The notes under the pieces are model-generated. The model was given only the letters and a program-made list of their open reading frames with translations, searched no databases and was not told the DNA's origin. Source: Bacteroidota bacterium (lineage in GTDB: Bacteria > Bacteroidota > Bacteroidia > Bacteroidales > FEN-979). From it: a stretch of 64,000 nucleotides of DNA. Below are positions 23,830 to 51,303 of this stretch, in pieces. Location: assembly GCA_026391775.1 (NCBI GenBank), contig JAPLDK010000007.1, positions 1,065 to 65,064 on the forward strand. The letters run 5' to 3'. The position numbers and the translations under genes are program-made. Numbering within the stretch: position 1 is the stretch's first letter; each line of letters starts with the position of its first letter.

Positions 23830-24114
23830 TTATGAATGTTTTCCTTGTTCGGAAACAAGAAATTCTGCAATGCTGTTAATTGACCTTATCACTGAACGAG
23901 CCAGGTTCTGATCGGCTATTCTCAGGTTATATTTACGCTGTATTGCCATGATGATCTCCAATGCGTCGACGGAATCCAGCGTCAGGGCATTTTCCCCGCC
24001 AAATAGTGGTTTGTCATCATCGATTTCTTCAGGCTTTATCCCTGTTATTCCAAGTGTTTCCATTATGAGATTCTTGATCTCCGTCCTCAGTTCTTCCGTC
24101 ACTACCTGGTTCAT
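23830..24114 (-). CDS. Acyl carrier protein
   Basis: 94 aa. Phosphopantetheine attachment motif LTLDSVDALEIIMAIQ. Confidence 0.85.
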   Translation of the reverse strand: MNQVVTEELRTEIKNLIMETLGITGIKPEEIDDDKPLFGGENALTLDSVDALEIIMAIQRKYNLRIADQNLARSVIRSINSIAEFLVSEQGKHS

Positions 24115-24124
24115 GTAAGTTGAT

Positions 24125-25132: not shown

Positions 25133-25136
25133 TTCT

Positions 25137-25532
25137 TTATTTTCTGTTTCCTGATTGCCTTCCTGCAACCTCTTCCACCGAAACGTTGAACACTACAGAG
25201 TATTTTTTTAGTGCAGATTCATTGATCCTGGAAAAATTGCCCGGTTTAAGATGCTTTCTTACGATCCACTTCATAATCCCAGCACGTGCCGCAAGTTCTG
25301 AAATAGTAAGGTCTTCCAGTATCATATAATACTCAATGGCATTAATCTCACCTTTTTCTATCCTCTCCCGGAGAGCCTTTTCCAGGTTACGCCGTTTGAA
25401 AAAGTAATCGTCAATATAATTAGCTGAAAGGTAGGAGCCGGTTTGCATGGCCCCATACTTTCCGTCCTCCTTTTCCACATACAGTATTACCTGCTGTTCA
25501 GGGCATTCAGAATATCCATCCTTTTCTTTCAT
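25137..25532 (-). CDS. Hypothetical protein with C-terminal helix-turn-helix-like segment
   Basis: 131 aa. LTISELAARAGIMKWIVRKHLKPGNFSRI resembles an XRE-type HTH. No confident family. Confidence 0.4.
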   Translation of the reverse strand: MKEKDGYSECPEQQVILYVEKEDGKYGAMQTGSYLSANYIDDYFFKRRNLEKALRERIEKGEINAIEYYMILEDLTISELAARAGIMKWIVRKHLKPGNFSRINESALKKYSVVFNVSVEEVAGRQSGNRK

Positions 25533-25552
25533 CGGATCACCCGGTTTGAAGA

Positions 25553-26743: not shown

Positions 26744-26757
26744 CCTGCAAAGGTAAA

Positions 26758-35241: not shown

Positions 35242-38200
35242 GTATGCTGTATTGTTTTAAGATTTCTCTTTAGCAGATAATACGTGTTCGAACTGTATGT
35301 CTTTGAGCCTATTATCTCTAGGCTGAAGCCAGTCTGTGATGCAATTTGTCTGATCCTGTCAGTGGATATAAAGTGAAGCCTGCTTGTTTCGCCATAGGTC
35401 TTATTAAACTTCATTCCGGTGGAAAACAGTTCGGTAAGTCTTGAACGCGAATGTCCTTCTTCACGGTTTGCGTCAGCATCCCTGATGATGACAATCCCGT
35501 CCTGCTTCAGGTTTGTCATACATTTCATCAGGAGTCGTTCCTGGTCCGCCGGAAGAATATAATGCAGGACATCGCTTAGTATGATGCAGTCTTTGGGAGA
35601 AAATTCATACAACCTGATATCGGTTGCCTTGAAAGTTACCTGGAGTGATTTGATAAACCCGCCTTCAGCCACCCTGATCTTATCATCATCATAATCAATA
35701 CCGGTAATCATTCTTTCTGCGGATGTGAGGGCAAGCATATAGCTTATGAACCCGTATCCGCAACCCATATCCAGTATTTCGCCCTGGCGGGGCACATATT
35801 CATTTAGCAGAGAATAGTTCTTCTCAAGCATCAGTTTGATCTTAAGGTACCATTCCAGTACCGGACCCTTATAAATATAATTAAGGACAAGTTTGCGGCG
35901 GTAAAATGAAGCGTTGCCCTCTTCGGCCCGGAAACGGTCATATTCCTTTATATACCATCTCCTGGTTAACCTGGTCCTTTCTTGATAACTTGTCCCGAAC
36001 GAGCTGTCATCCGGCTTAATCCTTGGATATATCCTTTGCCTGAACATATTAGGCCTTCCCCAGAATGCACCATGCGCCAGAAATTCCCCGGTGCCAAACA
36101 TCATCACCGGCAGGATGTCCAGTTGTAGCTTCTCCGCTATATAAAAGGCCCCCCTGTGAAATCTCTGAATCTTATGGTCGGTCGAACGGTGAGCCTCCGG
36201 AAAGATAAGGAGGGAATACCCCTCGCTGACTTTCTTTTTAAGCTTTTCCATAATGTAATCCAATCCCTTATCAACATTGTAGAAATTTGCGAGCCTGGCT
36301 ATGGGCCCAAACACAGGGGAATTATAAACCCAGGTATTGGTAAGTATAATCATCTTAGGATATAGCCGGAGCATTGCCGGTGTTTCAACAAGTGACTGAT
36401 GGTTACTGATGATTAGTGCAGGTTTTTTAAAATCTTCGCCAATTGGGTTATACAACCTGCGGTTTGGAAAGGCAAGGAAAATATACAGCCTTGAAAGGCT
36501 GCAGAACAAATTGTGGAAGATGTTCTCCTTCCAACTGCGTTTCAGAGGGAGCAGGAAATACATCAGCCAGCCGGTAACAGTAAGGATTATAGCGATCAGA
36601 ACGATATTTCCCCAGGTGATGATGGTTTTGACAAAAATCCTCGCGGTTACGGGGAATTTGTTTCTCCTGAGCCTTTCGGTCATAAACCAGCCTACAACCA
36701 AGGGCTGTATGCTGAAAGTGATCAGGACAAGCACGAGGATTCCAAACACTGAGATCAGTGCGATCGAATGAAGGGCCGGATGACGGGCCGTAAATAAAGC
36801 GGCAACACCGAACAACGTTGTGGACGAGGATAACATGATGGATATTCTGTATGATGAAATGTTCTGTGACCTGTACTTGTAGTCCTGCATCAGGCCCCTC
36901 ATCATCAGGATGCTGTAATCGACCCCAAGTCCGAAAATAAAGGATGAGATGATAATGTTGAAAATATTGAACCTTATACCTGTAACGCCCATAAAACCAA
37001 GTGTAATGATCCAGGAGAGGTACATCGGTATGGCTGTGAACAGGGCTAATTCAATCCGGCCGAAAGAGAACCATAAAAGCAGGCTTACAAAGAGCATGGA
37101 AAGCAGAACAAGCCTGTCGAAATCTTTCCTTACACCTTCAACAAAACGATCTGTGAGTTTCTGCCTGTCGAAGACCACAACACCCGTCATGCTGCCGAAT
37201 TCTTCATAAATTTTCACAACATTCGCAGGTTTCACCTTTGCAATGGATGTAATCATGGACATCCCCTGGTTGAAATTTATCCATTCAGAAAACAATGCAT
37301 TTTCAAACCTGGATTTAAGCTTAGGGTCCAGGAGTTCATATGATTTTCCGACCATTTTGTCAAACCCATTGAAAGCCCCGGGAGTAAACCCTGTTTGTGA
37401 CGCAGCCCTATCGATTTTAACGATCATATTACGTGATTTTTCAGCAGGGAAAGCCGCTTCCCATTTGTTAATACGTAACCCGGAAAGAGAATCGGACAGT
37501 AGAAGAGACCTGATCCCTGAAACTCCTGCAACAGTCCGATTCTGAATCATGGCGTCAAGGCGCAACTGTATCCTTTCGTTCAACCTGAGAGCTTCTTCCC
37601 GGCAAGCTCCCGTCGCAACAATGTAAATATTTTTAAATTTTCCGTTGGATAAGCTGTCCAGTTCGTCCCCTGCTTTGCGCAGGCCGGATTCCATATAATT
37701 CAGGGTATTCATATCCGTTTCAAAACCGGCTTTCCTGAAGAAAAACAAGCTGGCAAAGCAGAGCAGGCCTAAAATAACGATGAGGATATAATTTCTTTCA
37801 AATTGCAGGCTGCCGATACGGTCTATGAATGTCGAAAATGCAGAGGGACGTTTTTCACGGAAGCGTTCCGAGAACATCTGTGGAAGGAAGACCAGTGCAA
37901 ACAGTGCCGCTCCAGTAACACTAACCGAGGCAAACCATCCAAGGTCATGAAGTACGCTGGATTTAAGAAAAACCAGGCACAGAAAGGCTCCTGCAGAAGT
38001 AAGTGCACAAACTACAATGCTTTGTGACATTTCGCGCAGGGTTTGCCTTACATCCCCGCATCTTCTGTACTGGTTGATCAGGTACAATGAATAATCAATG
38101 ATCAGCCCCAGGATCACTGAACCGATGCCCAGGGCAATAGCCGATACAGAGCCTTTAACAAAAGCAAGGACAGCAATTGCCAGCCCTCCTCCGAAAACTG

Positions 38201-39143
38201 CAGGAAGCAGGCCGAGCAAGGGAACCAGCACTGATCTGAAATAGAAACCAAGCAGAAGGAAGATCGCCAGGAAGGCGATCAGCAGGGTAAGAATGATGTC
38301 CTTTTTAATTCGTTCCGCATTGCCGGCTGCCACTGCGGCAGCCCCGAAATATTCCGCCCTGAAACTCTGTCCTGAATTAATTTTCAGGTCAATGATCTGA
38401 TCAAGTTTTTTAAGGAATTTCCCATTCTTACCAGTTTCTCCCGGTGGATTTGAAGGAGTAATAAAAATTAGAAGGTGGTGGTGGTCTTTGCTGAGGATAT
38501 ATCCATTGTACGATTCATACTGATCGCTCCCCTGCAAAGCCTGCAATTTCCTTAGGGCGAGTCCCTGAATTCCAAGCGGATCGTTGAGTATCTGATCCCT
38601 GATAACGATGGAGGCTGGGGATAACAATTGACGGTAAGCCTTTTTGACAGCCTTTTCTATATTTCCTGTGGATGTCATTGTATCGATCCGCAAATAATCC
38701 CCATCTTCAAGAAATAATGGAAGGTAGTCACGGGTGCAGACAATCAGTTCAGGCAATAACGAATCATCCGGTTTATAGAACATTTTCCTGATATATTCCT
38801 TGCATCCGAAATTAATTGCAGTTGCTAGTGTATCGGCCGCCATGCAAAGATATTCTTCCCTGCTAGCCATAGTAGTATCAGCAAAAGACAGATTGATAAC
38901 CAGCTTTTCAGCAAACTGGAAATGGCTGACCACAAAGTCAAACCGGTTCAACATTTCCACCTTTGAAGAGCTGCCAGAAATATCTTCAACAAACCGTATC
39001 CGGGAAACACCAAGGATAACAAAAAGAAAGACCGCTCCTAAAAAGAGCCAGAAAAGCCATCTTCTTGTGCTGAATAAGATATAAATATAGATAAAAAGGT
39101 TTGACATCTGAATAAGGTAATCATTCCATTTATAATAATACAA
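35238..39143 (-). CDS. Tri-functional fusion: MMPL/RND-type exporter + PlsC-type acyltransferase + class I SAM methyltransferase
   Basis: 1301 aa. Two MMPL-type TM bundles (GSVILGLIIDYSLYLINQY and FGLGVDYSILMMRG). Next comes LPLAT motifs ALIISNHQSLVETP and LLIFPEAHRS (about nt 35950-36450). The C-terminal part has GEILDMGCGYGFISYML (about nt 35241-35830). The real start may be the ATG at 39107. Confidence 0.8.
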   Translation of the reverse strand: MYYYKWNDYLIQMSNLFIYIYILFSTRRWLFWLFLGAVFLFVILGVSRIRFVEDISGSSSKVEMLNRFDFVVSHFQFAEKLVINLSFADTTMASREEYLCMAADTLATAINFGCKEYIRKMFYKPDDSLLPELIVCTRDYLPLFLEDGDYLRIDTMTSTGNIEKAVKKAYRQLLSPASIVIRDQILNDPLGIQGLALRKLQALQGSDQYESYNGYILSKDHHHLLIFITPSNPPGETGKNGKFLKKLDQIIDLKINSGQSFRAEYFGAAAVAAGNAERIKKDIILTLLIAFLAIFLLLGFYFRSVLVPLLGLLPAVFGGGLAIAVLAFVKGSVSAIALGIGSVILGLIIDYSLYLINQYRRCGDVRQTLREMSQSIVVCALTSAGAFLCLVFLKSSVLHDLGWFASVSVTGAALFALVFLPQMFSERFREKRPSAFSTFIDRIGSLQFERNYILIVILGLLCFASLFFFRKAGFETDMNTLNYMESGLRKAGDELDSLSNGKFKNIYIVATGACREEALRLNERIQLRLDAMIQNRTVAGVSGIRSLLLSDSLSGLRINKWEAAFPAEKSRNMIVKIDRAASQTGFTPGAFNGFDKMVGKSYELLDPKLKSRFENALFSEWINFNQGMSMITSIAKVKPANVVKIYEEFGSMTGVVVFDRQKLTDRFVEGVRKDFDRLVLLSMLFVSLLLWFSFGRIELALFTAIPMYLSWIITLGFMGVTGIRFNIFNIIISSFIFGLGVDYSILMMRGLMQDYKYRSQNISSYRISIMLSSSTTLFGVAALFTARHPALHSIALISVFGILVLVLITFSIQPLVVGWFMTERLRRNKFPVTARIFVKTIITWGNIVLIAIILTVTGWLMYFLLPLKRSWKENIFHNLFCSLSRLYIFLAFPNRRLYNPIGEDFKKPALIISNHQSLVETPAMLRLYPKMIILTNTWVYNSPVFGPIARLANFYNVDKGLDYIMEKLKKKVSEGYSLLIFPEAHRSTDHKIQRFHRGAFYIAEKLQLDILPVMMFGTGEFLAHGAFWGRPNMFRQRIYPRIKPDDSSFGTSYQERTRLTRRWYIKEYDRFRAEEGNASFYRRKLVLNYIYKGPVLEWYLKIKLMLEKNYSLLNEYVPRQGEILDMGCGYGFISYMLALTSAERMITGIDYDDDKIRVAEGGFIKSLQVTFKATDIRLYEFSPKDCIILSDVLHYILPADQERLLMKCMTNLKQDGIVIIRDADANREEGHSRSRLTELFSTGMKFNKTYGETSRLHFISTDRIRQIASQTGFSLEIIGSKTYSSNTYYLLKRNLKTIQHT

Positions 39144-40403: not shown

Positions 40404-41744
40404 ATGAAAATACTGCTCATTAACACACCGCGCTCCCCGGAGAATAGGATACTTGAGTTCGCGCCTGAAGCTGCGAAGCCTTTTATTCATAAGAAACTGA
40501 TAGGTCCACCCCTGGGGCTCATGACAATAGCAGCTGTGGTGAAAGACCATGATGTGCTCCTGTTTGACACGAAAGGGGAGTTTGACCTTACGCCTGATCC
40601 GCCCTCCCTTGCCGGTCTGGTGAAAAGACTGGTTCATGAATTTAAGCCGGATATTGTAGGAAGCACTGCAATTACTTCCGAACTGTATTACGCTTTGGAA
40701 ATATTTACCGAAGCAAAAAAGGCAAATCCCCGTATTATTTCTGTTTTAGGCGGATTGCATCCTACCTTACTTCCATACGATTGTTTTCATCCGTCGGTTG
40801 ATGTGGTCTGTCAGGGGCAGTGCCCTCATATTTTCAGGGATGTAGTTCAGGCTCTGGAACGTAAATCCTCCCTGGAAACAGTACCCGGCATTTTATTAAA
40901 CAATGGATCCGGGCTAATACGAACCGAAGGAAAACCCCGTTCCTGGGACGCTGCCAATGCAGATTATCTTTTGCCCGACCGGGCGCCGCTGAAAAAATGG
41001 ATCAATGCATATAAGGTCGGTGGCAGCCCTGATCCAAGCACCTATATATTCACGTCCCTGGGCTGTCCCTATAAATGTACTTTTTGCTCGATATGGCCGC
41101 AGTTCAAGGGGAAGTATTACCAGAGGACAATCGAAAGCCTGATCGCAGAGCTGCACTCAATTCCCGATTATCCGGTTGTAAGGTTTGCGGACGCTAATAC
41201 AGTTGTTGACCTGGGTTTTATGAATGCCCTGTTCGACCGTATTCTGGAAGAAGGTATCCGTAAGACCATTATAATGGATATCAGGGCTGATGTGGCAGCC
41301 ATGCATCCCGGGATAATCAGTAAGATGGCAAGGGGAGGGCTTAAAGTGGTGATTTGCGGATTTGAGTCATACAGGGATGAGGACCTGAAAAAATACCGCA
41401 AAGCGTCGCCTGCCAGCGACATCGCAAAAGCCATTAAAGTTTTCCACGACAACGATATTATGATCAGGGGAAATTATGTTATCCCAAATGATTATTCTGA
41501 GGATGATTTTAAGGCCCTTGAAGAATATTCGGCAGGCAATCCTGTAGTTTATGCAGGCTACACAATTCTCACACCCATGCCAGGCACTGTGTTTTACAGC
41601 CAGGTGAAGAAGCAGATAACCGATCATGATTATCTGAAATATAACTTTTTTAATTCTGTAATGCGGACCACATTATCCTATGAAAAATTTCATGAACGGG
41701 TAGGCAGCCTCTGGCTTATTAAAAGTGGAAAAGACGTAATATGA
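40404..41744 (+). CDS. Cobalamin-binding-domain radical SAM protein
   Basis: 446 aa. N-terminal B12-binding-like fold (MKILLINTP...GPPLGLMTIAAVV...IVGSTAITS). CX3CX2C motif FTSLGCPYKCTFCSIW. Confidence 0.8.
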   Translation: MKILLINTPRSPENRILEFAPEAAKPFIHKKLIGPPLGLMTIAAVVKDHDVLLFDTKGEFDLTPDPPSLAGLVKRLVHEFKPDIVGSTAITSELYYALEIFTEAKKANPRIISVLGGLHPTLLPYDCFHPSVDVVCQGQCPHIFRDVVQALERKSSLETVPGILLNNGSGLIRTEGKPRSWDAANADYLLPDRAPLKKWINAYKVGGSPDPSTYIFTSLGCPYKCTFCSIWPQFKGKYYQRTIESLIAELHSIPDYPVVRFADANTVVDLGFMNALFDRILEEGIRKTIIMDIRADVAAMHPGIISKMARGGLKVVICGFESYRDEDLKKYRKASPASDIAKAIKVFHDNDIMIRGNYVIPNDYSEDDFKALEEYSAGNPVVYAGYTILTPMPGTVFYSQVKKQITDHDYLKYNFFNSVMRTTLSYEKFHERVGSLWLIKSGKDVI

Positions 41745-43165
41745 AAAAGTTACTTCTGGTAAATACAAACGCAGAAAAATCACCTTATCCGATTCCTCCG
41801 CTTGGGATTTGTTTGATTGCCTCTTTTCTGAATGGCCATTATGATGTCAAAATTTATGACGGGATGTTCGATGAAGGCAGAAGCCTGGGATCGGTGATCC
41901 ACAGTTATAATCCTGATTTTATTGGTTTCAGCATACGCAATGTAGATGAGGTGGTGCCGGAGCGATCCACTTTCTTCATTCAGGGCGTTTACCGGAACTT
42001 TATTGAGCCGGCGCGTAAATTCACCACCGCTCCTTTTATTCTGGGTGGAAGCGGGTATACGATCTTTCCGAGGGAAATATTGGATTATACCGGTGCTGAT
42101 TACGGGATTGCCGGAGAGGGGGAGGAACCCCTGCTAATCCTTCTTCAGAAACTTGAAAGGGGAGAAACTGTTACGCGAATACCTAATGTATATGCAAGAA
42201 AGGGAGAGGGGCCGCGAAAATTGAGAGCAGAAGGTGACTACAACCTAAGGCCTTACTCTGAGATAGATCTTAAACTGGATTTTAATCCTTATACCGACCG
42301 GGGGGTATACAGTATACAAACTAAAAGGGGTTGTGCGCTTCGATGCCTCTATTGTTCCTATCCACTTCTGGAAGGCAGGCAATACCGCCTGAGAGCTCCA
42401 CAGGCCATAGTTAATGAAATCGAAGAGGCTTCTGAAAGACTTGGGGAGAGTGTGACCTTCGAATTCGTAGATTCAACCTTCAACGAGCCCAAGGGCCATG
42501 CAGAGGAGATATGCAAGGAACTTATCCGCAGAAAAATCAGGGTCAGGCTGAGGACCATGGGTGTAAATCCCAGGAATACGAGTAAGGAATTGTTCGGTCT
42601 TATGACAGAAGCCGGTTTTGCCCAGATAGACGTGACCCCTGATTCTGCTTCAGTAACTGTTATCAAGAATCTTCTTAAGGGGTTTACCATAGATGACATC
42701 CGCAGAACAGCAATGCTGATAAGGGAGTTCAACTTTCCGTCTATGTGGTTTTTCCTGTTTGGAGGGCCGGGTGAAAACCGCGGCACTTTTAATGAAACTC
42801 TTAATTTTATTGATAATTTTATTAATCCCAACGACCTGGTATATATGTCGGGAGGCCTGAGGATCTACCCCGGAACCCCTCTGTTTGATGTTGCATTAAA
42901 GGAAGGTTTTATCTCTGATTCCGACAACCTTTTTAAGCCTTCGGTTTTTTATTTTTCGAAAGAATCCCCTCAGGCTGTACTCAGAGACTGGATAACAGAG
43001 GCCTGCCGGGACCGGCTGAACTGCCTGCCTTCATATGAAACAAACGCACCTGCCGAAATGCTTCGTGAAGCGGTTTCCACTCGTAGCAATCAGGGCCTTA
43101 CCGAACCTATGTTCAGGACACTATTACGCCTGAGAAGAGAGTGGAAAATTTCCGGAAAGTTGTGA
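41741..43165 (+). CDS. Cobalamin-binding-domain radical SAM protein
   Basis: 474 aa. N-terminus MKKLLLVNTN...PPLGICLIASFL...FIGFSIRN. CX3CX2C motif IQTKRGCALRCLYCSYP. Has an ATGA overlap with the preceding rSAM. Confidence 0.8.
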   Translation: MKKLLLVNTNAEKSPYPIPPLGICLIASFLNGHYDVKIYDGMFDEGRSLGSVIHSYNPDFIGFSIRNVDEVVPERSTFFIQGVYRNFIEPARKFTTAPFILGGSGYTIFPREILDYTGADYGIAGEGEEPLLILLQKLERGETVTRIPNVYARKGEGPRKLRAEGDYNLRPYSEIDLKLDFNPYTDRGVYSIQTKRGCALRCLYCSYPLLEGRQYRLRAPQAIVNEIEEASERLGESVTFEFVDSTFNEPKGHAEEICKELIRRKIRVRLRTMGVNPRNTSKELFGLMTEAGFAQIDVTPDSASVTVIKNLLKGFTIDDIRRTAMLIREFNFPSMWFFLFGGPGENRGTFNETLNFIDNFINPNDLVYMSGGLRIYPGTPLFDVALKEGFISDSDNLFKPSVFYFSKESPQAVLRDWITEACRDRLNCLPSYETNAPAEMLREAVSTRSNQGLTEPMFRTLLRLRREWKISGKL

Positions 43166-43201: not shown

Positions 43202-44122
43202 TCACGTCGTCACATTATCACGGATTAAGGTATTCCAGTTCACAAACTTCCCTGCACCGGGAATAAACTTAGAATTCTTCCGTAATGCCTGTGAGGGGCC
43301 GCATTCCGTGAAAAGGCGTATGCCTGAGCTGAACATCTGCACCTGGGTTGCCAGCCAGTTAAAGGGGTTATGGATATTATTCACGACCTCCATTCTTGCT
43401 CTTTCCGCATTAATTATCAGGTTCTGGCTGAGCGCTGAGATGATTGGGATTTCCGGAGCCCGGACTTCTGCAGTATAGACTGTTTCTGATAATTTTATTG
43501 CCGCTTCCGACAACAGGTTTGTATGATAGGGCACAGTCACTCCCAATGACCTTGCATGAAGGGCCCCTTCTTCCCTGGCTTTCAATAGGAAAACATTAAT
43601 GTGAAAACTATTGCCTGCCACAGTAAAAGAATAATCGCTGTTGCGGTTGACGATCATCAGATTCAGATTGTGCTGTCCTGCTATATCCCTGATGTCTTTT
43701 TCGCTCAGGCCTATCACACCCCCCATGCCGTACTGGCCGTGCGGGAGGACTTTCCTGATTGCTTCATAGGCTTTCTGAATAAAAAGCAATCCGGTTTCAA
43801 ATGAAATAGAGCCGGCTGTGTAAAGGGAAGCATAGATTCCCATGCTGTAACCTGCGGTCATGGCCGGCTTAACCCCTGATTTCATAAGGATCCCGGCACA
43901 ACTGCAGCCATAGATGTATGAAATGTACTGGTTTCGAAGTTCATCCTGCAGCATAGGATTTGATTCCGGATGAAATGAAAGCAATTCTTTGTCAACTGAA
44001 TCAGCCGCCCTTGAAAGATAAGCCTGAAAAACTTTCGAAAAACCAAGAACCCCGTGGGAAGGGTCATCCCGGTGGTCACTAATAAAAGCAGGAAAAACGA
44101 AAGCAATTGTATCTTCTGCCAA
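43202..44122 (-). CDS. Divergent FabD-like acyltransferase (malonyl-CoA:ACP transacylase family)
   Basis: 306 aa. Nucleophile elbow GYSMGIYASL (GHSxG with H to Y), VNRNSDYSFTVAG and VPYHTNLL. The N-terminal FPAFISD replaces FPGQGSQ. Confidence 0.65.
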   Translation of the reverse strand: MAEDTIAFVFPAFISDHRDDPSHGVLGFSKVFQAYLSRAADSVDKELLSFHPESNPMLQDELRNQYISYIYGCSCAGILMKSGVKPAMTAGYSMGIYASLYTAGSISFETGLLFIQKAYEAIRKVLPHGQYGMGGVIGLSEKDIRDIAGQHNLNLMIVNRNSDYSFTVAGNSFHINVFLLKAREEGALHARSLGVTVPYHTNLLSEAAIKLSETVYTAEVRAPEIPIISALSQNLIINAERARMEVVNNIHNPFNWLATQVQMFSSGIRLFTECGPSQALRKNSKFIPGAGKFVNWNTLIRDNVTT

Positions 44123-44130: not shown

Positions 44131-44439
44131 TTATTTATCCAGTTCCAGCAGCCGGTTTTCGTGTTCGATGATCAGCATCTGCATCTCAATCAACTGGCCT
44201 ATGGTATCAACAGGATGTTTAACAGCATATTTGCCGATGGTTTTCAGTTCAATATCGAGATTGTATTTCTTTTTGAAGATCTCTATCAGTTCGAGGAACA
44301 TCAGCGAATCCCCATCCAGGTCCTTGATAATATTTGTGTTATCGGTGATCTGTGATTTATCTGCCTCACATTCTTCAGCAAAGAACGCAAAGACAATCTC
44401 TCTGACTTCATTCCGGGTGCTCTCTGTGATTTTTGCCAT
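44131..44439 (-). CDS. Acyl carrier protein (with C-terminal extension)
   Basis: Phosphopantetheine site DLDGDSLMFLELIEIF. Start set at the ATG at 44439 (MAKITESTRNEV), which leaves a 25-nt gap after the KS. The ORF-track start overlaps the KS. Confidence 0.75.
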   Translation of the reverse strand: MAKITESTRNEVREIVFAFFAEECEADKSQITDNTNIIKDLDGDSLMFLELIEIFKKKYNLDIELKTIGKYAVKHPVDTIGQLIEMQMLIIEHENRLLELDK

Positions 44440-44464: not shown

Positions 44465-45688
44465 TTAATTTCCGGGATATTTTCTAAATACCAGGGTGGC
44501 ATTATGGCCTCCAAAGCCGAAGGAATTTGAAAGTGCAACATGTATTTCCTTCTGCCTACTCACGTTGGGGACATAATCCAGGTCAAGGTCGGGATCGGGA
44601 TCAGAATAATTAATTGTTGGAGTAAGGATGTTGTTTTTCAGGCTCAGAATTGTGATGATCCCTTCAATAGCTCCTGCAGCCCCAATTGTGTGGCCAATCA
44701 TTGATTTGGATGAAGACACAGGGATATGATAAGCCTGCTCGCCAAAAACTTTTTTAATTGCCATGGTCTCATACCGGTCGTTGAGTTCGGTCGAGGTTCC
44801 ATGAGCATTGAGGTAACCTACTTCGCTTTTATCAACACCTGCGTTCTGTAATGCTTTTTCAATTGTAGCTGCCATTCCTGCACCGTCTTTCATAGGGGCC
44901 ATAATGTTATATCCCTCGCTGGTCAGGGCATAGCCTGCCAGCTCGCTATGAATGATTGCATTTCTCATGAGAGCATGTTCTTCCGATTCAAGGATTACCA
45001 CTCCGGCCCCTTCACCTATGACAAACCCATCCCGTTTTGATGTAAAAGGCCTGCTTGCAGCTTCGGGTGGGTCATTGGCAACTGACAATGCATATAAGGC
45101 GTTAAAACCGTTTATTTCCTCAGGGTTGATGATGGAATCGGCTCCTCCGGCGATGACAACATCAACCATATTGTTTTTAATCATCTGCATGCCAATTGCA
45201 ATGGCATAGGCTGAAGATGCACAGGCTGTATTGATTGCAAAATTTGGGCCGAGAAGTTGGTATTCAAGTGATATCCATGCAGGCATGGAGTTGGTCATGC
45301 TTTTGAATACCGTGTTCTGGGGGGAAGTGTCTTTTTCTACGCTGGAATTCCCTGTATTTACCACTCCCATAATGACAGCACAACGTGTCTTATCCTCTTT
45401 CTCAAAATCCAGTCCGGAAAGGGTAACAGCCTGTTTTGCTGCGACCAGACACATCCTGGTAACCCTGGTCATTTGCCCGGCTGCACGCTTTTTGACGAGG
45501 CACCTTGAATATTCTTCAAATTCATGAGGTACTTCAGCGGCAATCTGAGTTGCACAGGAAGAGGCGTTAAAAAGGGATATCTTTTTTACACCGCTTTTGC
45601 CTTCAACAAGGTTTTTCCAGAACGTTTCTAAATCATAACCAAGGGATGATACAATGCCCATCCCACTAATAACTACTTTTCCAGCCAT
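44465..45688 (-). CDS. Beta-ketoacyl-ACP synthase (FabF/KAS II-like)
   Basis: 407 aa. Cys-His-His triad contexts INTACASSAYAIAIG, LNAHGTSTELND and SMIGHTIGAAGAIE. Confidence 0.9.
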   Translation of the reverse strand: MAGKVVISGMGIVSSLGYDLETFWKNLVEGKSGVKKISLFNASSCATQIAAEVPHEFEEYSRCLVKKRAAGQMTRVTRMCLVAAKQAVTLSGLDFEKEDKTRCAVIMGVVNTGNSSVEKDTSPQNTVFKSMTNSMPAWISLEYQLLGPNFAINTACASSAYAIAIGMQMIKNNMVDVVIAGGADSIINPEEINGFNALYALSVANDPPEAASRPFTSKRDGFVIGEGAGVVILESEEHALMRNAIIHSELAGYALTSEGYNIMAPMKDGAGMAATIEKALQNAGVDKSEVGYLNAHGTSTELNDRYETMAIKKVFGEQAYHIPVSSSKSMIGHTIGAAGAIEGIITILSLKNNILTPTINYSDPDPDLDLDYVPNVSRQKEIHVALSNSFGFGGHNATLVFRKYPGN

Positions 45689-45697: not shown

Positions 45698-46120
45698 TTA
45701 ATTATTCAGTGCCTTGGCCCAGTTTTTAATCAGGTCAACCTCAGCCTGGGTGGGAATATTGCCAGGGTTATTCTTACGCCATTTTCCCGGTGGCATTGAC
45801 CCTTTTGAAACCTTTTTGCTGATGTCATTTGCTTTGTCGGCCTGTCTTTTAGTGTCGTAAGTATTCCAACTGGAAAAGTTGACACGCATTTTAGCCATGC
45901 TGTTTCCGTCTGCACCATGACAATCCATGCAGGCTTTTTGTATGATTTTCGCCACTGAATCCGGAAGTTCGGGGTTCCCTTCGGCATATTTTACTGAACC
46001 GGATGCGTTTACAGGCCTGAAAGCCAGGACCAGAAAGAACACCACTGCAAATGATATCCATAGAAATGCACTTGTTTTTCTCATAAATTTCATGTTAATG
46101 CTTAAAACAAAAATACGCAC
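45698..46120 (-). CDS. Small secreted haem-binding-domain protein (single CXXCH)
   Basis: 140 aa. Has a signal/anchor (FLWISFAVVFFLVLAF). CMDCHG is followed by VNFSSWNTY, as in the 'haem-binding domain' family of small c-type proteins. The start may be the ATG at 46093. Confidence 0.6.
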   Translation of the reverse strand: MRIFVLSINMKFMRKTSAFLWISFAVVFFLVLAFRPVNASGSVKYAEGNPELPDSVAKIIQKACMDCHGADGNSMAKMRVNFSSWNTYDTKRQADKANDISKKVSKGSMPPGKWRKNNPGNIPTQAEVDLIKNWAKALNN

Positions 46121-46122: not shown

Positions 46123-48699
46123 TTATTCAAAGGGGCCTAATTCTGTTCCAAAATATTCTTTCAATGCCTCATTAAGTTCATCAATGGTTAGGCCCGAATG
46201 AGTGATAAACCTCCGGGCTGCATTTTTATATGTGAACTCCAAATGATTTCTTAATTCTTCGATTTTCTCAGGTACAGCTGCCGCTGGATTTCTTTCGGTT
46301 GCATTTCCGGAATAATCATAAAAGCCACGGCCCGACTTCCTGCCAAGATGACCTTCGGAAATCAGTTTTTTAAGTTTGCTGATGAGAGGAGTATAGTATT
46401 CGGCATGGGGGTATTTGACCGTATAATTTGTTATGCTCCTTAGCATGGTATCAAGGCCTACATGGTCAAAGAACTCAAAGACACCGGCAGGGAAGAGCGT
46501 TCCCTTCACGGCCTGGTCAATTTCGCTGCATGTTGCCTGGCCCTGATCGACAATACGGTAGGCCTCATTCTGCACATCGAGGAAAATACGGTTGAGAATA
46601 AAGCCCTCCTCTTCGGTCAACAGAATAAATCTGCGTTTGATTGTATCGAGAAAAACAATCAGCTTTTCAACGGTATTACCGGAAGTGCCCGGCCCCCTGA
46701 TAATCTCCACAATGTTTACCAGGTTTACAGGATAAAAGAAATGAAGTCCTGCAAATTTTTTTTCCCTTGCTTTAGATGGGCAAAGGACCGAAGGATTGAT
46801 CGAAGATGAGTTGGTAACAAGGATTGCATCCGGATGTAATATTGTATCTGCTTGAGCGAGAACCTTCTTCTTGAGCTCCTCGTCCTCGGTGATGGCTTCT
46901 ATAACAAGCGTACAGCCGGACAAAGCTGATATCTCAGGAGAAATTACAGTTAGTTTAAGCTTATCGTATTTCGCTTCTGATATTATACCGTTCTCAAGGA
47001 GTCTTCTGGTCTTTTTTTCAATGTTCTTGCGGATCTTCGCCAAATCGGCCTGGGAACTGACGACCCACCGGATATCAAGGCCTGATTCAATAAAATAATG
47101 AGCAAGGTTTGTTCCCATCTTACCTTCCCCGATAATACCAACTGTTGCTGCTTTCATAAGTTGTTGATTCCACTTCCCCATATCTTGCGCTATCACCAGT
47201 TTGCGGTATTCATCCATCCTGAGGTGATGCTGGCGTATATGCCTGTTGTAACCCAGCATGGACAGGATAAAGCCCAGGCCTTTGTCAATGGCGATCTGTT
47301 TCGCACGGATAAGATTGAACATGAAGATGAACAGGGCTTTGCGGTCCTTATCGGATGTGAGAATAAACTCTTTGAAAGTTATCCAGGAAAGACGGGCCTT
47401 AATCCAAACGGGGATATTGCCTCCGGGCCTCGTAAAAGCCCCGTTGCTGAAAAGAGCTTCAGCTTTCTTTCTGATAACAGGGAAAGAATACAAGCGGGTG
47501 ATTGTTTCCATGTATTTGTCGAAGATCTCGATCTGAGACATGTTCATGTATTGAATAGTAGGGAAGTGGCCTACTCCCATTTCCGGATCGCAGTTCATGA
47601 GCCTTCCTTCCGCCTTCAGTTTCTTATTGGTTTCGGTGCCAGGAGGAGCATTTAACAGGTGAAGGTTTACATTCGGAAGATTATGTTCCAGGGTAAAGTT
47701 GAAAATCCGCTCAAACTCATCCGCAGTATCATGATCAAATCCGACTACAAAACTTGCATTAATCTGTATACCCGCTGCATGTATTTTACTTATGGCTTCC
47801 TTGTAAATAGACCCACCCCGGTTGTGATGTTTCCGTGTTTCGTCAAGACTGTCACGATTCAAAGATTCAAACCCAACCAGGATGTTAAAACAGCCGGCAT
47901 CCGCCATAAGTTGTAAAAGTTCGTCATCGGTAGCCACATCCAGGCTGCACATGCAGCCCCATGAAATGTCCAGGGGTTTGATAGCCTTCATCAGTTCCTT
48001 GGCATAGCGTTTATTAATAGTCAGGTTGTCATCAACAAAAAAGAAATATTTTGAAGGAGCGGCTTTGATTTCATCCACCACATTAGCAATCTCGCGGTAC
48101 CTCATTTTACGGCCGAAATTCTTGGAGACAAGGCAGAAATCACAGTTAAACGGGCAGCCTCTTGAAACTTGTATTGCCACCTGGAAAATCCTCTTCATGT
48201 TAACCAGGTCCCAGCGGGGTGGTTTTTGATGGTGGTATTCGGTGTATGTTGTGGATTCGTATACCTGTTTAAGTTCTCCTTTCTCAAAATCGGCAAGGCA
48301 TTGTTCCCATTTACCTTCAGCTTCACCAACAACAACTGCGTCTCCGTGTTTCAGGGCCTCATCGATAACAAAGGAGGCATATGGCCCTCCGTAGACCACT
48401 TTAGCCCCCATGGAGCGGTAATGGTCTCCAAGTTCGAAAGCCCGCTTCGCTGTGGCTGCCAGGGTCGTGATGCCAACAATATCGGGCCGGATACCTGAAG
48501 GAATATCCTCTATCTCTTCATCATAAATCGAGATCCTGTAATGAGTGGGGGTAAGCGAAGCAATTGTCGGGAGTGCGAGGGGCACCATGAAACGTTTCTT
48601 CCCGAACATTCTTGCCATTTCAGAATGAGCAGGATAGTTGATATACTTCTGTCTAGGGCCTAATAGAAAAAGATTATATTTTGGTTTCTCTTCAGACAT
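46123..48699 (-). CDS. Fusion: cobalamin-binding-domain radical SAM + 3-hydroxyacyl-CoA dehydrogenase (Hbd/HADH-type)
   Basis: 858 aa. The N-terminal half has IVGITTLAATA...VVYGGPYAS (B12-like) and QVSRGCPFNCDFCLVS (CX3CX2C). From about nt 47160 downward there is VGIIGEGKMGTNLAHYF (NAD Rossmann) and GLHFFYPVNLVNIVEIIRG (the HFFNP-type HADH signature), plus the C-terminal HADH helical domain. Confidence 0.8.
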   Translation of the reverse strand: MSEEKPKYNLFLLGPRQKYINYPAHSEMARMFGKKRFMVPLALPTIASLTPTHYRISIYDEEIEDIPSGIRPDIVGITTLAATAKRAFELGDHYRSMGAKVVYGGPYASFVIDEALKHGDAVVVGEAEGKWEQCLADFEKGELKQVYESTTYTEYHHQKPPRWDLVNMKRIFQVAIQVSRGCPFNCDFCLVSKNFGRKMRYREIANVVDEIKAAPSKYFFFVDDNLTINKRYAKELMKAIKPLDISWGCMCSLDVATDDELLQLMADAGCFNILVGFESLNRDSLDETRKHHNRGGSIYKEAISKIHAAGIQINASFVVGFDHDTADEFERIFNFTLEHNLPNVNLHLLNAPPGTETNKKLKAEGRLMNCDPEMGVGHFPTIQYMNMSQIEIFDKYMETITRLYSFPVIRKKAEALFSNGAFTRPGGNIPVWIKARLSWITFKEFILTSDKDRKALFIFMFNLIRAKQIAIDKGLGFILSMLGYNRHIRQHHLRMDEYRKLVIAQDMGKWNQQLMKAATVGIIGEGKMGTNLAHYFIESGLDIRWVVSSQADLAKIRKNIEKKTRRLLENGIISEAKYDKLKLTVISPEISALSGCTLVIEAITEDEELKKKVLAQADTILHPDAILVTNSSSINPSVLCPSKAREKKFAGLHFFYPVNLVNIVEIIRGPGTSGNTVEKLIVFLDTIKRRFILLTEEEGFILNRIFLDVQNEAYRIVDQGQATCSEIDQAVKGTLFPAGVFEFFDHVGLDTMLRSITNYTVKYPHAEYYTPLISKLKKLISEGHLGRKSGRGFYDYSGNATERNPAAAVPEKIEELRNHLEFTYKNAARRFITHSGLTIDELNEALKEYFGTELGPFE

Positions 48700-48716: not shown

Positions 48717-49859
48717 TCAGAATTGACGCCAGCTCATGACATATCCGGCTTGCATGAACTTGCTGACTTCCGTGACAAAGCTGAGTACGATGTCCTTATC
48801 GACCAGTTTTTCTTCTTTTAAAATCCTATCGAGGCATAAAAATGCCATTGGTGGGCCCAAGTATCCCATAGCCGACATTTTTGAATACAAGGTATAGCGC
48901 GGTATGCCCAACCCGGCACACTCATCCATGACAAGCTCCGAGATATGTTTTGAGGGAAAGTTAACCTGGAAAAACCTGATAGCTTCCATATCGACAGGGT
49001 GTTGCTTTAACATGCGTTTTAAGCCGTTCAGGAATACCGACCCGTCCGGCTCATGAAAATTCTGTCGCAATTCCTCCTGGAACATCTGGGCAAGGTGGTG
49101 ATAGCCTTTCTCATATTCTTCCTTTGGATTCATCCAGTAAGCAGGCCGTTTGTTACCCATGGCCGAAGGTTTGTTTCCACCCACCGATTCCATATAGACA
49201 TGTTCAACATACAGTCCGTTTGCCTTTTCGGGTGCTGCTTTCAGGAAGAGAGCAGAAGCCCCGTCCGAGAGAAAATATCTCAGGAACAACTCTTCTTTGG
49301 TTACCAGGGGCTGGTTGTAATATTCTGCAACAAGTTCCGAAGATGACATGCTGGACGAGATTACCAGGGCATTGTCATAACGGCCATGCCGGATCATGTC
49401 AGAAGCAACAAGCAGTGACTTATAGGCAGATGTACAGTTGGCATGAATGGAGAGCTCTCCGCAATGTTCAATCCCGAGACCTTCCTGTATTCTCACCGAA
49501 GCTGTCGGCATCTGGTCCTGGTGTGCGCTGCCATAAACAATAAGCTGAACATCTTTAGGTGTCATTCCTGCAACCTGAAGTGCCTGCTCTGCAGCTTTGA
49601 CCGACATACTCACATTATCTTCTGTAAACTTTCTGCTGACCGGGTCCAGCGCAAAATGGTAATATTCGACTTCAAGCAGTTCAGCCATCAGTCCCCTTAT
49701 TCTTTGAAGCCATTTTCGTATCTTGAGGGGAGCTTCGGTGAGTTCGCCAAGATAATAATCGACTTCCGTCTTGGGAACCGGCTTTCCAGGTAGGAATGAA
49801 CCGCTTCCGGTAACCATTACAGCCCTATGAAATATATAATTTGTATTATGTTCTTTCAC
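48717..49859 (-). CDS. Thiolase-fold KAS III-like enzyme with atypical catalytic residues
   Basis: 380 aa. Cys context SIHANCTSAYKSLLVASDMIRHG. By eye, the positions that align with FabH HQAN and GNTSAAS read FFQVN and SAMGYLGPP. This suggests the His/Asn of the decarboxylative triad are not conserved. Confidence 0.6.
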   Translation of the reverse strand: MKEHNTNYIFHRAVMVTGSGSFLPGKPVPKTEVDYYLGELTEAPLKIRKWLQRIRGLMAELLEVEYYHFALDPVSRKFTEDNVSMSVKAAEQALQVAGMTPKDVQLIVYGSAHQDQMPTASVRIQEGLGIEHCGELSIHANCTSAYKSLLVASDMIRHGRYDNALVISSSMSSSELVAEYYNQPLVTKEELFLRYFLSDGASALFLKAAPEKANGLYVEHVYMESVGGNKPSAMGNKRPAYWMNPKEEYEKGYHHLAQMFQEELRQNFHEPDGSVFLNGLKRMLKQHPVDMEAIRFFQVNFPSKHISELVMDECAGLGIPRYTLYSKMSAMGYLGPPMAFLCLDRILKEEKLVDKDIVLSFVTEVSKFMQAGYVMSWRQF

Positions 49860-50545
49860 GAAAGATATTTCTTGATATATAATGCCCTCTTTTCGACCCT
49901 GAAATCCTGCATCACCTCCTTTGCAAAATCGCTTGAAGTGGAAAGCAACGCTTTTTTGGGAACTACCTTATCAACGATCCTGTATTTCATGGCGTCTATT
50001 GATGTGAATGTGCTTCCCTTCAGCACACGTTCAAGGGCAAGAGCCTGTCCTGATATACAACACAGTTTGTAGATCCCGCCCAAGCCGGGGACAAGGTTGA
50101 AAGAGGCTTCCGGGAGGCCAAAAACTGCATCTTGTCCACAAAGCCTGAAGTGGCTGAACAGGGCGAGCTCCAGAGCCGAACCGAGGCAAACCCCACGTAT
50201 GGCAGAGATCACAGGGATTCTAAAGCTTTCAAGCATCAGCAGGGATTTATAATTATTGGAAAGAAAATCGGGCACTTTCGTCAACCTGCCTTTTTTATCA
50301 GTCTCGGCTTTATCAAGAATTTCCCTCAAAAGAACCGGCACATCGGCACCTGAAGAAAAATGTCTTCCGTGTCCACTTATAATCAGAGCACGAAACGCAT
50401 GGTGATTCTTTACAAATTCCAACACCGATGTGAATTCCGTGAAGAATTCCATGGTCATGGCATTCGAAGGCGGGGTATTCAGTTCCAACTGTCCTATCCC
50501 TTCTTCAAGGACTAAGCGAATTGTTGAATAATCAGGTATCTTCAT
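49856..50545 (-). CDS. Enoyl-CoA hydratase/isomerase (crotonase) family protein
   Basis: 229 aa. Oxyanion-hole pattern GHGRHFSSGADV and FGLPEASFNLVPGLGGI. Has ATGA-type overlaps on both sides. Confidence 0.75.
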   Translation of the reverse strand: MKIPDYSTIRLVLEEGIGQLELNTPPSNAMTMEFFTEFTSVLEFVKNHHAFRALIISGHGRHFSSGADVPVLLREILDKAETDKKGRLTKVPDFLSNNYKSLLMLESFRIPVISAIRGVCLGSALELALFSHFRLCGQDAVFGLPEASFNLVPGLGGIYKLCCISGQALALERVLKGSTFTSIDAMKYRIVDKVVPKKALLSTSSDFAKEVMQDFRVEKRALYIKKYLS

Positions 50546-51303
50546 TTCTGTATCTCCCGGGAACCATTCCTCCTTTTGGCCTCAGCAAGTGCCAGCTCGC
50601 AGAACATCCTGGTTTCCTCTTTCATAGCCTCTTCGATACTAAGGGATCTGGCGTTTTTCAAAGCCTTCATTACCGCATTGATAACAGGTAAAGGCCTGTC
50701 CCTGGTCAGTTTCTGCAAGAGGTTGAAGGAAAAATCAAATACCTTCTGTTTACTTACAATAAAATCCACGAGGTGCATCTCCTGTGCGTCCTCTGCATTG
50801 ATCATATCACCGCTCATGATGAGTTTCATCGCTTTTGGGAAACCGGTTTTTCCAAAACACCTGACGGTTCCTCCCAAACCGGGTATGACACCATGGTTGA
50901 TCTCGGGGAAAGCAAATAAGGCATTTTCGGAGCAGACCCTGATGTGACTGGAAAGAGCAACCTCCAGCCCCCCTCCGAAACAAATGCCCTGGATTGCTGC
51001 AACTACGGGTATTTCTAAATTTTCAAGATGTTCAAGCACAGCTTTCCCTTTCTCCATGCTCTCAGTAATGTTCTCCTTGTCTCGGATCATTTTGAACAGG
51101 TTCTCAAGCTTGCCGCCACCCGAGAAATGTTTTCCCGCACCACATATTATGATTCCTTTCAGGTAATCATAGGAGGTCCATTTTTTAAGGGTTTCAAGTG
51201 GTACAAATCCCGGCTGAACTAGATAGTTTTCAGGGGGATTGTCAAGTGTTATAATCCCAATATCACCTCTGATCTCCCAGCTTATTTTATCGATTGTTTC
51301 CAT
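50542..51303 (-). CDS. Enoyl-CoA hydratase/isomerase (crotonase) family protein
   Basis: 253 aa. GAGKHFSGGGKL and FAFPEINHGVIPGLGGT. Confidence 0.75.
   Translation of the reverse strand: METIDKISWEIRGDIGIITLDNPPENYLVQPGFVPLETLKKWTSYDYLKGIIICGAGKHFSGGGKLENLFKMIRDKENITESMEKGKAVLEHLENLEIPVVAAIQGICFGGGLEVALSSHIRVCSENALFAFPEINHGVIPGLGGTVRCFGKTGFPKAMKLIMSGDMINAEDAQEMHLVDFIVSKQKVFDFSFNLLQKLTRDRPLPVINAVMKALKNARSLSIEEAMKEETRMFCELALAEAKRRNGSREIQK

Follow-up and report, generated by a model that had tools for sequence, protein, structure and literature searches.

A predicted radical SAM–3-hydroxyacyl-CoA dehydrogenase fusion protein and its two-gene relatives in Bacteroidales

The C3′-deoxygenation in apramycin biosynthesis is carried out by AprD4, a radical S-adenosylmethionine (SAM) 1,2-diol dehydratase, together with the NADPH-dependent reductase AprD3. 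The radical SAM diol dehydratase needs this reductase (PMC5461906) and, although a Rossmann-like domain is present, AprD4 binds no cobalamin (PMC12931638). In the biosynthesis of dialkylresorcinols (DAR), DarB and StlD condense a beta-ketoacyl with an alpha,beta-unsaturated thioester to a carboxy-cyclohexanedione, which is then aromatised by DarA or StlC (PMC6836626). According to the same review, aromatisation by StlC is accompanied by decarboxylation (PMC6836626), and darA and darB lie side by side in canonical clusters (PMC3992019, PMC6836626). For the unsaturated partner used by Photorhabdus StlD, the ketosynthase (KS), the ketoreductase (KR) FabG and the dehydratase (DH) are borrowed from fatty acid synthesis (bioRxiv 10.1101/2022.10.20.513026). 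Here, an open reading frame (ORF) of 858 amino acids (aa) from a Bacteroidota bacterium (assembly GCA_026391775.1, contig JAPLDK010000007.1) is described, in which a radical SAM (rSAM) half is joined to a 3-hydroxyacyl-CoA dehydrogenase (HADH) half. The window that was analysed is the whole stretch of 64,000 nucleotides (nt) of this contig (positions 1,065 to 65,064), and all coordinates without a locus name refer to it (Table 1).

Fused and split forms of the rSAM-HADH pair

On the minus strand the fusion ORF is one uninterrupted frame; its continuity had been noted in a preliminary description made from the sequence alone, where no strand was given. The three peptides quoted there were all found again, QVSRGCPFNCDFCLVS at aa 177-192, VGIIGEGKMGTNLAHYF at aa 520-536 and GLHFFYPVNLVNIVEIIRG at aa 651-669, and the HADH part, which had been placed near nt 47160, starts with M515 (nt 47155-47157). 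The Pfam matches to Radical_SAM, 3HCDH_N and 3HCDH are far past chance. There is no true linker: the C-terminal helices of the rSAM half reach the first Rossmann strand of the HADH half within ~10 residues.

A homolog search in 5.8 billion proteins revealed the fused architecture in 15 protein clusters, with sequences from NCBI, ENA, JGI and Logan. Fourteen of them (P0001-P0014, 63-81% identical) span the whole length or nearly so, and P0020 is a fragment of 622 aa. For one of these proteins, P0004, there are 49 assembled contigs and index entries in 73 blocks of the collection. More than 100 further clusters consist of stand-alone rSAM proteins of ~514 aa, whose identity to the N-terminal part of the fusion reaches 88%. 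Among the ~62 species-level relatives in the GTDB species representatives, ~10 loci were called fused and ~52 split, based on tblastn frames and stop codons. The hosts are nearly all Bacteroidales, Prolixibacteraceae or Draconibacterium metagenome-assembled genomes (MAGs) from stratified or anoxic lake water, sediment and peat. For rSAM homologs outside the Bacteroidota (24-38% identity; Lentisphaerae, WS1, Armatimonadia, Melainabacteria, Anaerolineae), no HADH neighbour was found. The single polypeptide is thus real but atypical, as the halves are encoded separately in about five of six related species, and one nucleotide interconverts the two states. Two genes in other assemblies, which the preliminary description had regarded as speaking against a fusion, do occur in the split loci, yet the halves are also joined in the ~10 fused species-level relatives.

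In the split loci the two genes are adjacent and often overlap by 1 or 4 nt (ATGA/TAATG); in others they are separated by a short gap or an in-frame stop codon. In locus L001, for example, the end of the rSAM gene coincides with the start of a 343-aa HADH gene (TAATG) in a different frame. At least five types of junction, distinct in both sequence and length, were seen among the fused proteins, and in a neighbour-joining tree of the rSAM part, calculated without support values, fused forms are interleaved with split ones. This interleaving points to repeated fusion or fission, and the fused forms appear to be polyphyletic. An alignment of the junction DNA revealed one additional nucleotide in the fused loci (window, L008, L015, L005 and L006) in comparison to the split loci L065 and L023, located just before the ancestral ATGA overlap. 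In the window the former ATG start of the HADH persists in frame as M515, and in L008 and L015 it is changed to AAG. By this alignment, a single nucleotide added ahead of the former start makes the fusion.

Since the closest relative by its rSAM part (L065, 88% identical) is split, the difference between the states is exactly one nucleotide and the window retains the ancestral ATG, a one-nucleotide insertion error in the window assembly was considered, in which case the organism would have two overlapping genes. The exact 858-aa protein, like the DarB-like protein of the window, is on record in no other assembly, a 983-nt Logan contig with an identical ABC ATPase being the sole same-strain sequence match found; the runs SRR20698651 and ERR15302224 hold the same strain. 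Frame problems are also known from MAGs of this group (a split KS in L086, a gap of 113 aa in the rSAM protein of L065). However, the extra base is located outside a homopolymer run (CAACAACTTATG), and the same frame with equal junction length recurs in the sister lineages P0001/L008/L015 (81% identical), in P0002-P0010 and in many independent assemblies. The confirmation of the frame in an independent assembly, as suggested previously, was accordingly obtained for the architecture and not for the exact protein. An assembly artefact is regarded as improbable, and the architecture would exist in nature even if the window were wrong.

Both irregular MAG loci are described here in their own right. 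In L065 (76-1320) the rSAM core lacks ~113 residues (query aa 297-409), which reflects either gene degradation or a faulty assembly; the name of the MAG suggests ~7x coverage. In L086 (2811-4033) a KS, which has 407 aa in L085, is broken into ORFs of 136 and 271 aa, so frame errors or pseudogenes do occur in such MAG contigs.

Four natural variants of the pair were found. The rSAM paralog of L064 (5998-8564) is 60% identical, and its gene shares 4 nt with that of a 336-aa extended short-chain dehydrogenase/reductase (SDR; 3Beta_HSD/Epimerase) and not of an HADH; glycoside hydrolase genes of GH2 and GH39 and a SiaC-like gene surround it. L058 (5977-9857) holds a minimal rSAM-HADH-FabF trio outside a large cluster; DarB-like and crotonase genes are missing from its vicinity, where the opposite strand encodes an acyl-CoA dehydrogenase, an acetate/butyrate-kinase-like protein and an alpha/beta hydrolase. 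In L071 (Lentisphaerae) a 36%-identical rSAM gene abuts a FabF-like KS gene, and L066 carries the order crotonase-crotonase-DarB-like-rSAM-HADH without the FabF block. Across these variants, the rSAM lineage recurs in association with an NAD(P)-dependent hydroxy/oxo enzyme and with a KS for chain extension.

Judging from the genomic sequences, the window ORF appears to be a genuine Rosetta-stone gene fusion of a conserved, translationally coupled rSAM-HADH pair, and the fused state a less common form, one nucleotide away from a widespread two-gene unit. The recurrent fusion and the translational coupling of the split forms suggest that the two proteins act together, and the main value of the fusion is the evidence it gives for this. 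The coupling of NAD(P)(H)-dependent and radical chemistry that was proposed previously fits the repeated independent fusions, the translational coupling of the split forms and the coupling of the paralog to a non-homologous NAD(P) oxidoreductase. The statement that no characterised example is known was likewise sustained: no description of an rSAM-HADH pair or fusion was found in the literature, the NCBIfam models remain below cutoff for both halves, and the database entries for fusion homologs bear generic names only. In a search of 1.84 billion representatives, no other rSAM+HADH fusion family was found among the best 150 matches; the candidates P0343 and P0355 were rejected, as their two matched stretches are HADH-HADH tandems.

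Properties of the two halves

Due to the Pfam match PF04055 (74.9 bits, cutoff 29.5) and the three Cys of the CxxxCxxC motif, which are invariant in 84 homologs, the N-terminal half belongs to the rSAM superfamily. Its helical C-terminal domain is also kept in the stand-alone ~514-aa homologs, and the rSAM clade as a whole is very strongly conserved, with 59-88% identity across ~60 species. Modelled alone with AlphaFold2 (AF2), the rSAM half reached a predicted local distance difference test score (pLDDT) of 90 and a predicted template modelling score (pTM) of 0.88. The N-terminal domain was predicted as a beta-alpha-beta, Rossmann-like fold with pLDDT >90, and its match to the Pfam B12-binding domain (PF02310, aa 61-130) has 27.4 bits, under the cutoff of 32.1.

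AprD4 is the best structural neighbour of the rSAM half (TM 0.64-0.75, root-mean-square deviation (rmsd) ~5 Å over ~460 columns) and by sequence, too, its best PDB match (E 1.3e-13, 20% identical). The cobalamin-dependent enzymes MgmA, CysS, TokK, OxsB and TsrM fit worse (TMq 0.52-0.58, rmsd mostly 10-14 Å). The architecture of a B12-type rSAM domain joined to an HADH, as reported previously, was therefore borne out by Pfam for rSAM and HADH, but the label 'B12-type' is left unproven by a Pfam match that stays below cutoff and by a nearest structure that binds no cobalamin. A cobalamin-binding role of the N-terminal domain is only suggested. In NCBIfam, HpnJ (108.5 bits, cutoff 577.6), BchE (93.7 bits) and PhpK (86.5 bits) are the best models for this half and none reaches its cutoff; the AprD4 model NF033070 ranks eleventh with 54.5 bits (cutoff 500) and covers the core region only (aa 174-360). 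The family of the rSAM-HADH pair is uncharacterised and fails the membership tests of AprD4 and of all other curated families.

The C-terminal half belongs to the 3HCDH family, with both Pfam domains above cutoff and a complete catalytic set. The catalytic Ser (NSSS), His653, Glu665 of the His-Glu dyad and Asn703 align with the structures 4j0e, 6aa8 and 6hrd, and these four columns are invariant among the HADH homologs. A GxGxxG motif is present as GEGKMG, and in Foldseek comparisons with Hbd/HADH structures TM values of 0.82-0.85 were obtained. Hbd/PaaH-type models are the best NCBIfam matches (191.9 vs 508 bits and 189 vs 408 bits), again below cutoff. The acidic residue at the end of strand beta-2 (LRD or LAD in the templates) is replaced in the sequence WVVSS, with S548 invariant. 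This replacement by V-S-S suggests that the HADH half may accept NADP(H).

Furthermore, a conserved tail of ~60 aa follows the canonical domains and is specific to the HADH subfamily of the fusion. H819, L820, R830, N843, E848-F850 and G855-F857 are invariant, and the stand-alone partner HADHs (340-350 aa) align through residue 857/858 of the fusion. Its similarity to the initial helices of the 3HCDH C-domain is weak (pattern NRL..Y.NEA...GP[FL]); aa 797-858 look like a truncated second copy of this domain, comparable to PaaH/FadB-type enzymes.

For the interface between the halves, AF2 gave no reliable prediction: both halves fold confidently (pLDDT 88), but the pTM of the whole fusion is 0.63, which leaves their relative placement undefined in the model. 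The examination of the inter-domain interface proposed in the preliminary description could thus not be turned into a geometry.

Table 1. Features of the fusion ORF and of the adjacent genes in the window.
Feature	Coordinates (nt)	Strand	Evidence and remarks
Fusion ORF, 858 aa	46123..48699	minus	aa 1-514 radical SAM half, aa 515-858 HADH half; ORF list, Pfam, full-length homologs P0001-P0014
Rossmann-like N-terminal domain, ~aa 8-140	48280..48678	minus	B12-binding-like annotation, putative; Pfam 27.4 bits, AF2 fold
Radical SAM core, aa 176-335	47695..48174	minus	Pfam PF04055, E 1.1e-20, 74.9 bits vs cutoff 29.5
CxxxCxxC motif (CPFNCDFC), C182/C186/C189	48133-48156	minus	3 Cys invariant in 84 homologs
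All-helical C-terminal domain of rSAM half, aa 389-505	47185..47535	minus	AF2 secondary structure, pLDDT ~90
Fusion junction, aa 506-518 (GKWNQQL-MKAATV)	47146..47184	minus	DNA alignment with split and fused relatives; junction table
HADH NAD(P)-binding domain, aa 519-694	46618..47145	minus	Pfam 3HCDH_N, E 1.9e-41, 142.4 bits
HADH C-terminal helical domain, aa 699-796, catalytic Asn703	46312..46605	minus	Pfam 3HCDH, E 7.9e-24, 84.4 bits
Conserved C-terminal tail, ~60 aa, aa 797-858 and stop codon	46123..46311	minus	Invariant columns; weak internal-repeat matches
DarB/StlD-family cyclising KS homolog, 380 aa, directly upstream	48717..49859	minus	NF005293, NF053539; PDB 5gk0
Crotonase-fold enoyl-thioester hydratase/dehydratase	49856-50545	minus	Pfam ECH_1, E 2e-31
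Crotonase-fold enoyl-thioester hydratase/dehydratase	50542-51303	minus	Pfam ECH_1, E 1e-36
Small exported c-type haem protein, directly downstream	45698..46120	minus	Haem_bd, E 3.8e-13; CMDCH motif; N-terminal hydrophobic signal
FabF-type elongating KS	44465-45688	minus	NCBIfam fabF, 451.6 bits; Cys-His-His intact
Acyl carrier protein (ACP)	44131-44436	minus	DSL motif
Malonyl acyltransferase (AT)	43202-44122	minus	Matches fabD/mdcH

Gene neighbourhood and proposed reactions

The fusion ORF is part of a long cluster on the minus strand, which runs from ~20.6 kb to past the window end. Its most informative neighbour, overlooked in the preliminary description, is the DarB/StlD-family KS gene directly upstream. 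The protein matches NF005293 over 1-371 of 378 positions (E 2.1e-31, 109.3 bits vs cutoff 450) and the DarB model NF053539 with E 1.2e-23 (83.9 bits vs cutoff 550); its best PDB match is StlD (5gk0), with the catalytic Cys aligned. An assignment of this KSIII-like gene to HMG-CoA synthase was rejected, since that match covers only ~100 residues (E 1.2e-07) in comparison to the full-length StlD/DarB match. A beta-branching cassette with HMG-CoA synthase (HMGS) of the order AT-ACP-KS-HMGS-ECH1-ECH2 was rejected as well, because the KS in question is a normal FabF with Cys-His-His. Both crotonases keep their two catalytic Glu (motifs GSALEL/LPE and GGGLEV/FPE). The order crotonase-crotonase-DarB-like-rSAM-HADH-cytochrome c-FabF-ACP-AT is kept in ~60 related loci. 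The c-type haem protein keeps its position between the HADH and FabF genes in most of them; a periplasmic cytochrome is an odd member for a lipid-building operon.

Further upstream, an ApeI-like dehydratase, a polysaccharide deacetylase, pairs of KS and chain length factor (KS/CLF), a thioesterase and an ABC exporter are encoded, and the cluster also contains a GT2-DUF2062 gene and CrtD-like flavin desaturases. Two flexirubin markers, likewise upstream, are above their equivalog cutoffs (LolA2_flexi 209.1 vs 125 bits, LolB2_flexi 90.6 vs 60 bits). The cluster is of the flexirubin type, with a TAL-like lyase, an SDR KR and an ApeP-like DH seen in syntenic relatives only. From this gene content the rSAM-HADH pair appears to be a fixed part of a resorcinol-type sub-module in a flexirubin-like aryl-polyene/lipid cluster of anaerobic freshwater Bacteroidales.

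In total, the cluster carries five rSAM genes, among which the clade described here is locked to an HADH, an elongating KS and a DarB-like cyclase. Two divergent B12-type rSAM genes are located on the plus strand (40404-43165), one HpnR/BchE-like (40404-41744) and one like the ladderane family (41741-43165), the latter with 308 bits to TIGR04072 ('lipid biosynthesis B12-binding/radical SAM protein', cutoff 360). Another rSAM gene was found at 30704-31978. A 1301-aa triple fusion (35238-39143, minus strand) combines an MMPL-type transporter, a glycerolipid-type acyltransferase and a SAM-dependent methyltransferase; its counterparts in the relative L003 are separate or shorter genes. At the low-coordinate end (20642-27849, minus strand) a PaaK-like aryl-CoA ligase, a sulfotransferase, a BtrH_N/DUF4872 protein, a second ABC-2 permease and an O-methyltransferase are encoded, which suggests a sulfated and/or O-methylated aromatic end product.

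Around the fusion, each role needed for the DarB/StlD substrates has its own gene: FabF, ACP and AT for the KS step, the HADH for the ketoreductase, the crotonases for the dehydratase and the DarB-like protein for the cyclase. HADH and crotonases handle (S)-3-hydroxyacyl thioesters, and FabG and FabZ/ApeI-type enzymes the (R)-isomer. Due to this shared (S)-stereochemistry the HADH and the crotonases were assigned to the DarB-like sub-module and not to the polyene machinery.

The favoured reading, held tentatively and with slightly less than even confidence, is a two-step NAD(P)H/radical enzyme, in which the HADH half would interconvert a 3-oxo and an (S)-3-hydroxy thioester and the tethered rSAM half would act radically on the same intermediate before cyclisation. 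FabF, ACP and AT, whose domains were identified, would build a 3-oxoacyl thioester, which the HADH half with its intact catalytic residues would interconvert with the (S)-3-hydroxyacyl thioester using NAD(P)H, where direction and carrier are presumed. From family knowledge, the two (S)-matched crotonases would yield a 2-enoyl thioester, and following the DarB/StlD precedent the DarB-like KS would condense the 3-oxoacyl and 2-enoyl thioesters to a cyclohexanedione or resorcinol precursor. The 5′-deoxyadenosyl radical of the rSAM half may take a hydrogen from the C3 carbinol or oxo carbon, or from a position adjacent to it, in the intermediate handled by the HADH. This would lead to C-methylation if cobalamin is bound and otherwise to an AprD4-like elimination or rearrangement; a ring closure was also considered. 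The fusion would merely tether partners that already act as a unit.

Several points weigh against this. The NCBIfam scores are far below cutoff (HpnJ 108 vs 578, AprD4 54.5 vs 500, Hbd 189 vs 408 bits), and neither half has a close characterised homolog. The DarB-like KS is distant (109 vs 450 bits), so its product may not be a cyclohexanedione. With 36-75% identity to the window the HADH parts are less conserved than rSAM, DarB-like KS, FabF and ACP (59-96%), and such a much faster evolution was unexpected in a partner that is obligate and tightly fitted. The AF2 model yields no confident geometry between the domains (pTM 0.63), and the position of the L064 pair among glycoside hydrolases hints at a sugar-type substrate for that branch.

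An alternative reading has a different substrate. AprD4 and HpnJ both act on glucosamine rings. The rSAM half could similarly take a hydrogen from the carbinol of a sugar, aminosugar or cyclitol head group, installed by the GT2 and de-acetylated by the polysaccharide deacetylase, and the HADH half would reduce the keto intermediate, with a net deoxygenation or ring contraction. AprD4 is the best PDB match by sequence (E 1.3e-13) and fold and HpnJ the best NCBIfam profile, both the GT2-DUF2062 and the deacetylase gene are present in the cluster, and the L064 paralog is partnered by a sugar-type extended SDR among GH2/GH39 genes. The HADH fold also serves non-CoA hydroxy acids; lambda-crystallin (L-gulonate 3-dehydrogenase) and diketoreductase are among the PDB matches. 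However, the pair is flanked by the DarB-like/crotonase genes and FabF/ACP/AT and not by the GT2 or deacetylase genes, in the L058 trio and in L071 the rSAM is connected with an elongating KS, the HADH half is most like acyl-CoA-type Hbd/HADH, and the AprD4 and HpnJ scores are far under the family cutoffs. Such a head-group remodelling is considered quite unlikely.

In the resorcinol sub-module the aromatase is the only role without a recognised gene, and the rSAM is the only gene without an assigned role. An oxygen-independent aromatase was considered, in which the rSAM replaces DarA/StlC and converts the carboxy-cyclohexanedione to a resorcinol by a HemN-like radical oxidative decarboxylation, while the HADH is merely the ketoreductase of the module or prepares the ring. 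No DarA/StlC-like gene was recognised beside the DarB-like gene: no DarA-named model matched in the 43-54 kb block, where every gene is otherwise assigned, although the presence of a DarA model in the libraries is unconfirmed and the absence of DarA is thus inferred. The identical gene order in ~60 loci, the hosts from anoxic lake water, sediment and peat, and the several rSAM genes of the cluster point in the same direction. On the other hand, the pair also occurs without a DarB-like gene, as in the L058 trio with FabF and in L064 with an SDR, other candidates exist in the cluster (the CrtD-like flavin desaturases and three further rSAMs), and a repeated fusion of an aromatase with a ketoreductase would be left without a reason. 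The aromatase is seen as rather unlikely.

A tailoring coupled to elongation was also considered: once FabF has extended an ACP- or CoA-bound chain, the HADH would make the (S)-3-hydroxy intermediate and the tethered rSAM would functionalise the carbinol carbon or its neighbour, which could result in a C-methylation (a beta-branch without an HMG-synthase cassette) or in a C-C ring closure. We consider this unlikely; if true, it would be a new anaerobic route to branched or carbocyclic lipid and resorcinol side chains. For the step-wise ('type c') ladderane assembly an enzyme of such kind has been postulated and never found (PMC10139942).

Regarding the ketoreductase of the cluster, domain scans of the window revealed no SDR (adh_short) domain in any ORF, and the fusion had been named the only NAD-dependent 3-oxoacyl reductase candidate. 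However, the window is cut inside the cluster, and the upstream contigs of two relatives (L085 and L086, one of them with the fused gene) extend past the point of the window end. There, genes for a TAL-like aromatic ammonia-lyase, an adh_short/KR, a KS, an ACP, an LpxL-rSAM protein and an ApeP-like dehydratase follow in this order. The claim therefore fails; the polyene part is served by a KR of its own, and the HADH is part of the resorcinol sub-module. The LpxL-rSAM protein, located between the ACP and the ApeP-like dehydratase genes (L085 5729-8062, L086 4336-6669), is a second rSAM fusion of 777 aa, with an LpxL-like (Lip_A_acyltrans) acyltransferase and B12-binding/Radical_SAM domains.

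The earlier proposal that the HADH is the ketoreductase of the entire type II polyketide synthase-like system, with the rSAM modifying the polyene or fatty chain by the beta-carbon, is left with the intact catalytic set of the HADH and the lack of adh_short in the window ORFs in its favour. It conflicts with the adh_short/KR encoded by the syntenic relatives upstream with TAL, KS, ACP and ApeP-like DH, and the (S)-specific HADH fits the crotonases and not the (R)-using polyene dehydratases; this version is held to be highly improbable.

Comparison with known systems

The repeated fusions point to the working partner of the rSAM and narrow the likely substrates to 3-oxo/3-hydroxyacyl intermediates. 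With partner and substrate class narrowed in this way, the family is unusually approachable in vitro, for which the fused variants are handy single-polypeptide expression targets. The solved chemistry would show how anaerobes build or decorate resorcinol and aryl-polyene lipids without oxygen, and it may add a second example of the AprD4/AprD3 logic, a radical step and an NAD(P)H step, in a wholly different pathway.

The clusters of the ladderane/Desulfotalea type for fatty acid synthesis (FASII; Rattray 2009; TIGR04072; PMC2649909) share FabF paralogs, ACPs, several rSAMs and CrtD-like desaturases with the cluster described here, as well as a polysaccharide deacetylase, a glycosyltransferase and a PaaK-like ligase. 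The hosts differ, being Bacteroidales and not anammox bacteria, and a hydroxyacyl-CoA dehydrogenase has no occurrence in the papers on these clusters. A membership of the fusion rSAM in the ladderane cluster family was rejected (58.8 bits to TIGR04072), as the near-member is a different rSAM of the window.

With the cobalamin-dependent (class B) rSAM enzymes (HpnJ, BchE, PhpK, TokK, CysS and MgmA) the rSAM half has in common the domain order, the best profile matches and a weak B12-binding match, but no cutoff is reached and the structural fit is poorer than to AprD4. In comparison to Hbd/Crt and FadB/FadJ, the HADH half shows the full Hbd/HADH fold with Ser-His-Glu-Asn and two crotonases close by, and FadB is an example of an HADH that tolerates fusion to a partner enzyme. 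The HADH of the fusion differs by missing the equivalog cutoffs (189-192 vs 408-508 bits), by its extra ~60-aa tail, by the lack of the acidic NAD-ribose residue and by an rSAM instead of a hydratase as partner.

Like in the DarA/DarB and StlC/StlD systems, a full-length DarB/StlD-family KS with the catalytic Cys adjoins the fusion, and the KS, KR, DH and ACP roles for the DarB/StlD substrates are all encoded around it. DarA/DarB and StlC/StlD are the cyclase-aromatase systems for dialkylresorcinols and isopropylstilbene, the DAR part also being found in flexirubin, and LolA2/LolB2 are present in the cluster and TAL in its relatives. Differences are the HADH and crotonases in place of FabG and FabZ, the rSAM in the neighbouring position, the lack of a recognised aromatase gene in the cluster of the fusion and the distance of the DarB-like protein (109 vs 450 bits).

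AprD4/AprD3 may be considered the closest analogue in working logic. AprD4 and the rSAM half are both composed of a Rossmann-like N-terminal domain and a following rSAM barrel, and both have a dedicated NAD(P)H oxidoreductase partner, for the fusion as judged by gene organisation only (an HADH in ~60 loci and the extended SDR in L064). Unlike AprD3, this partner has the HADH fold and is fused or translationally coupled to the rSAM, which is 20% identical to AprD4. The pair is furthermore located in a cluster for acyl thioesters and KS reactions and not in an aminoglycoside pathway.

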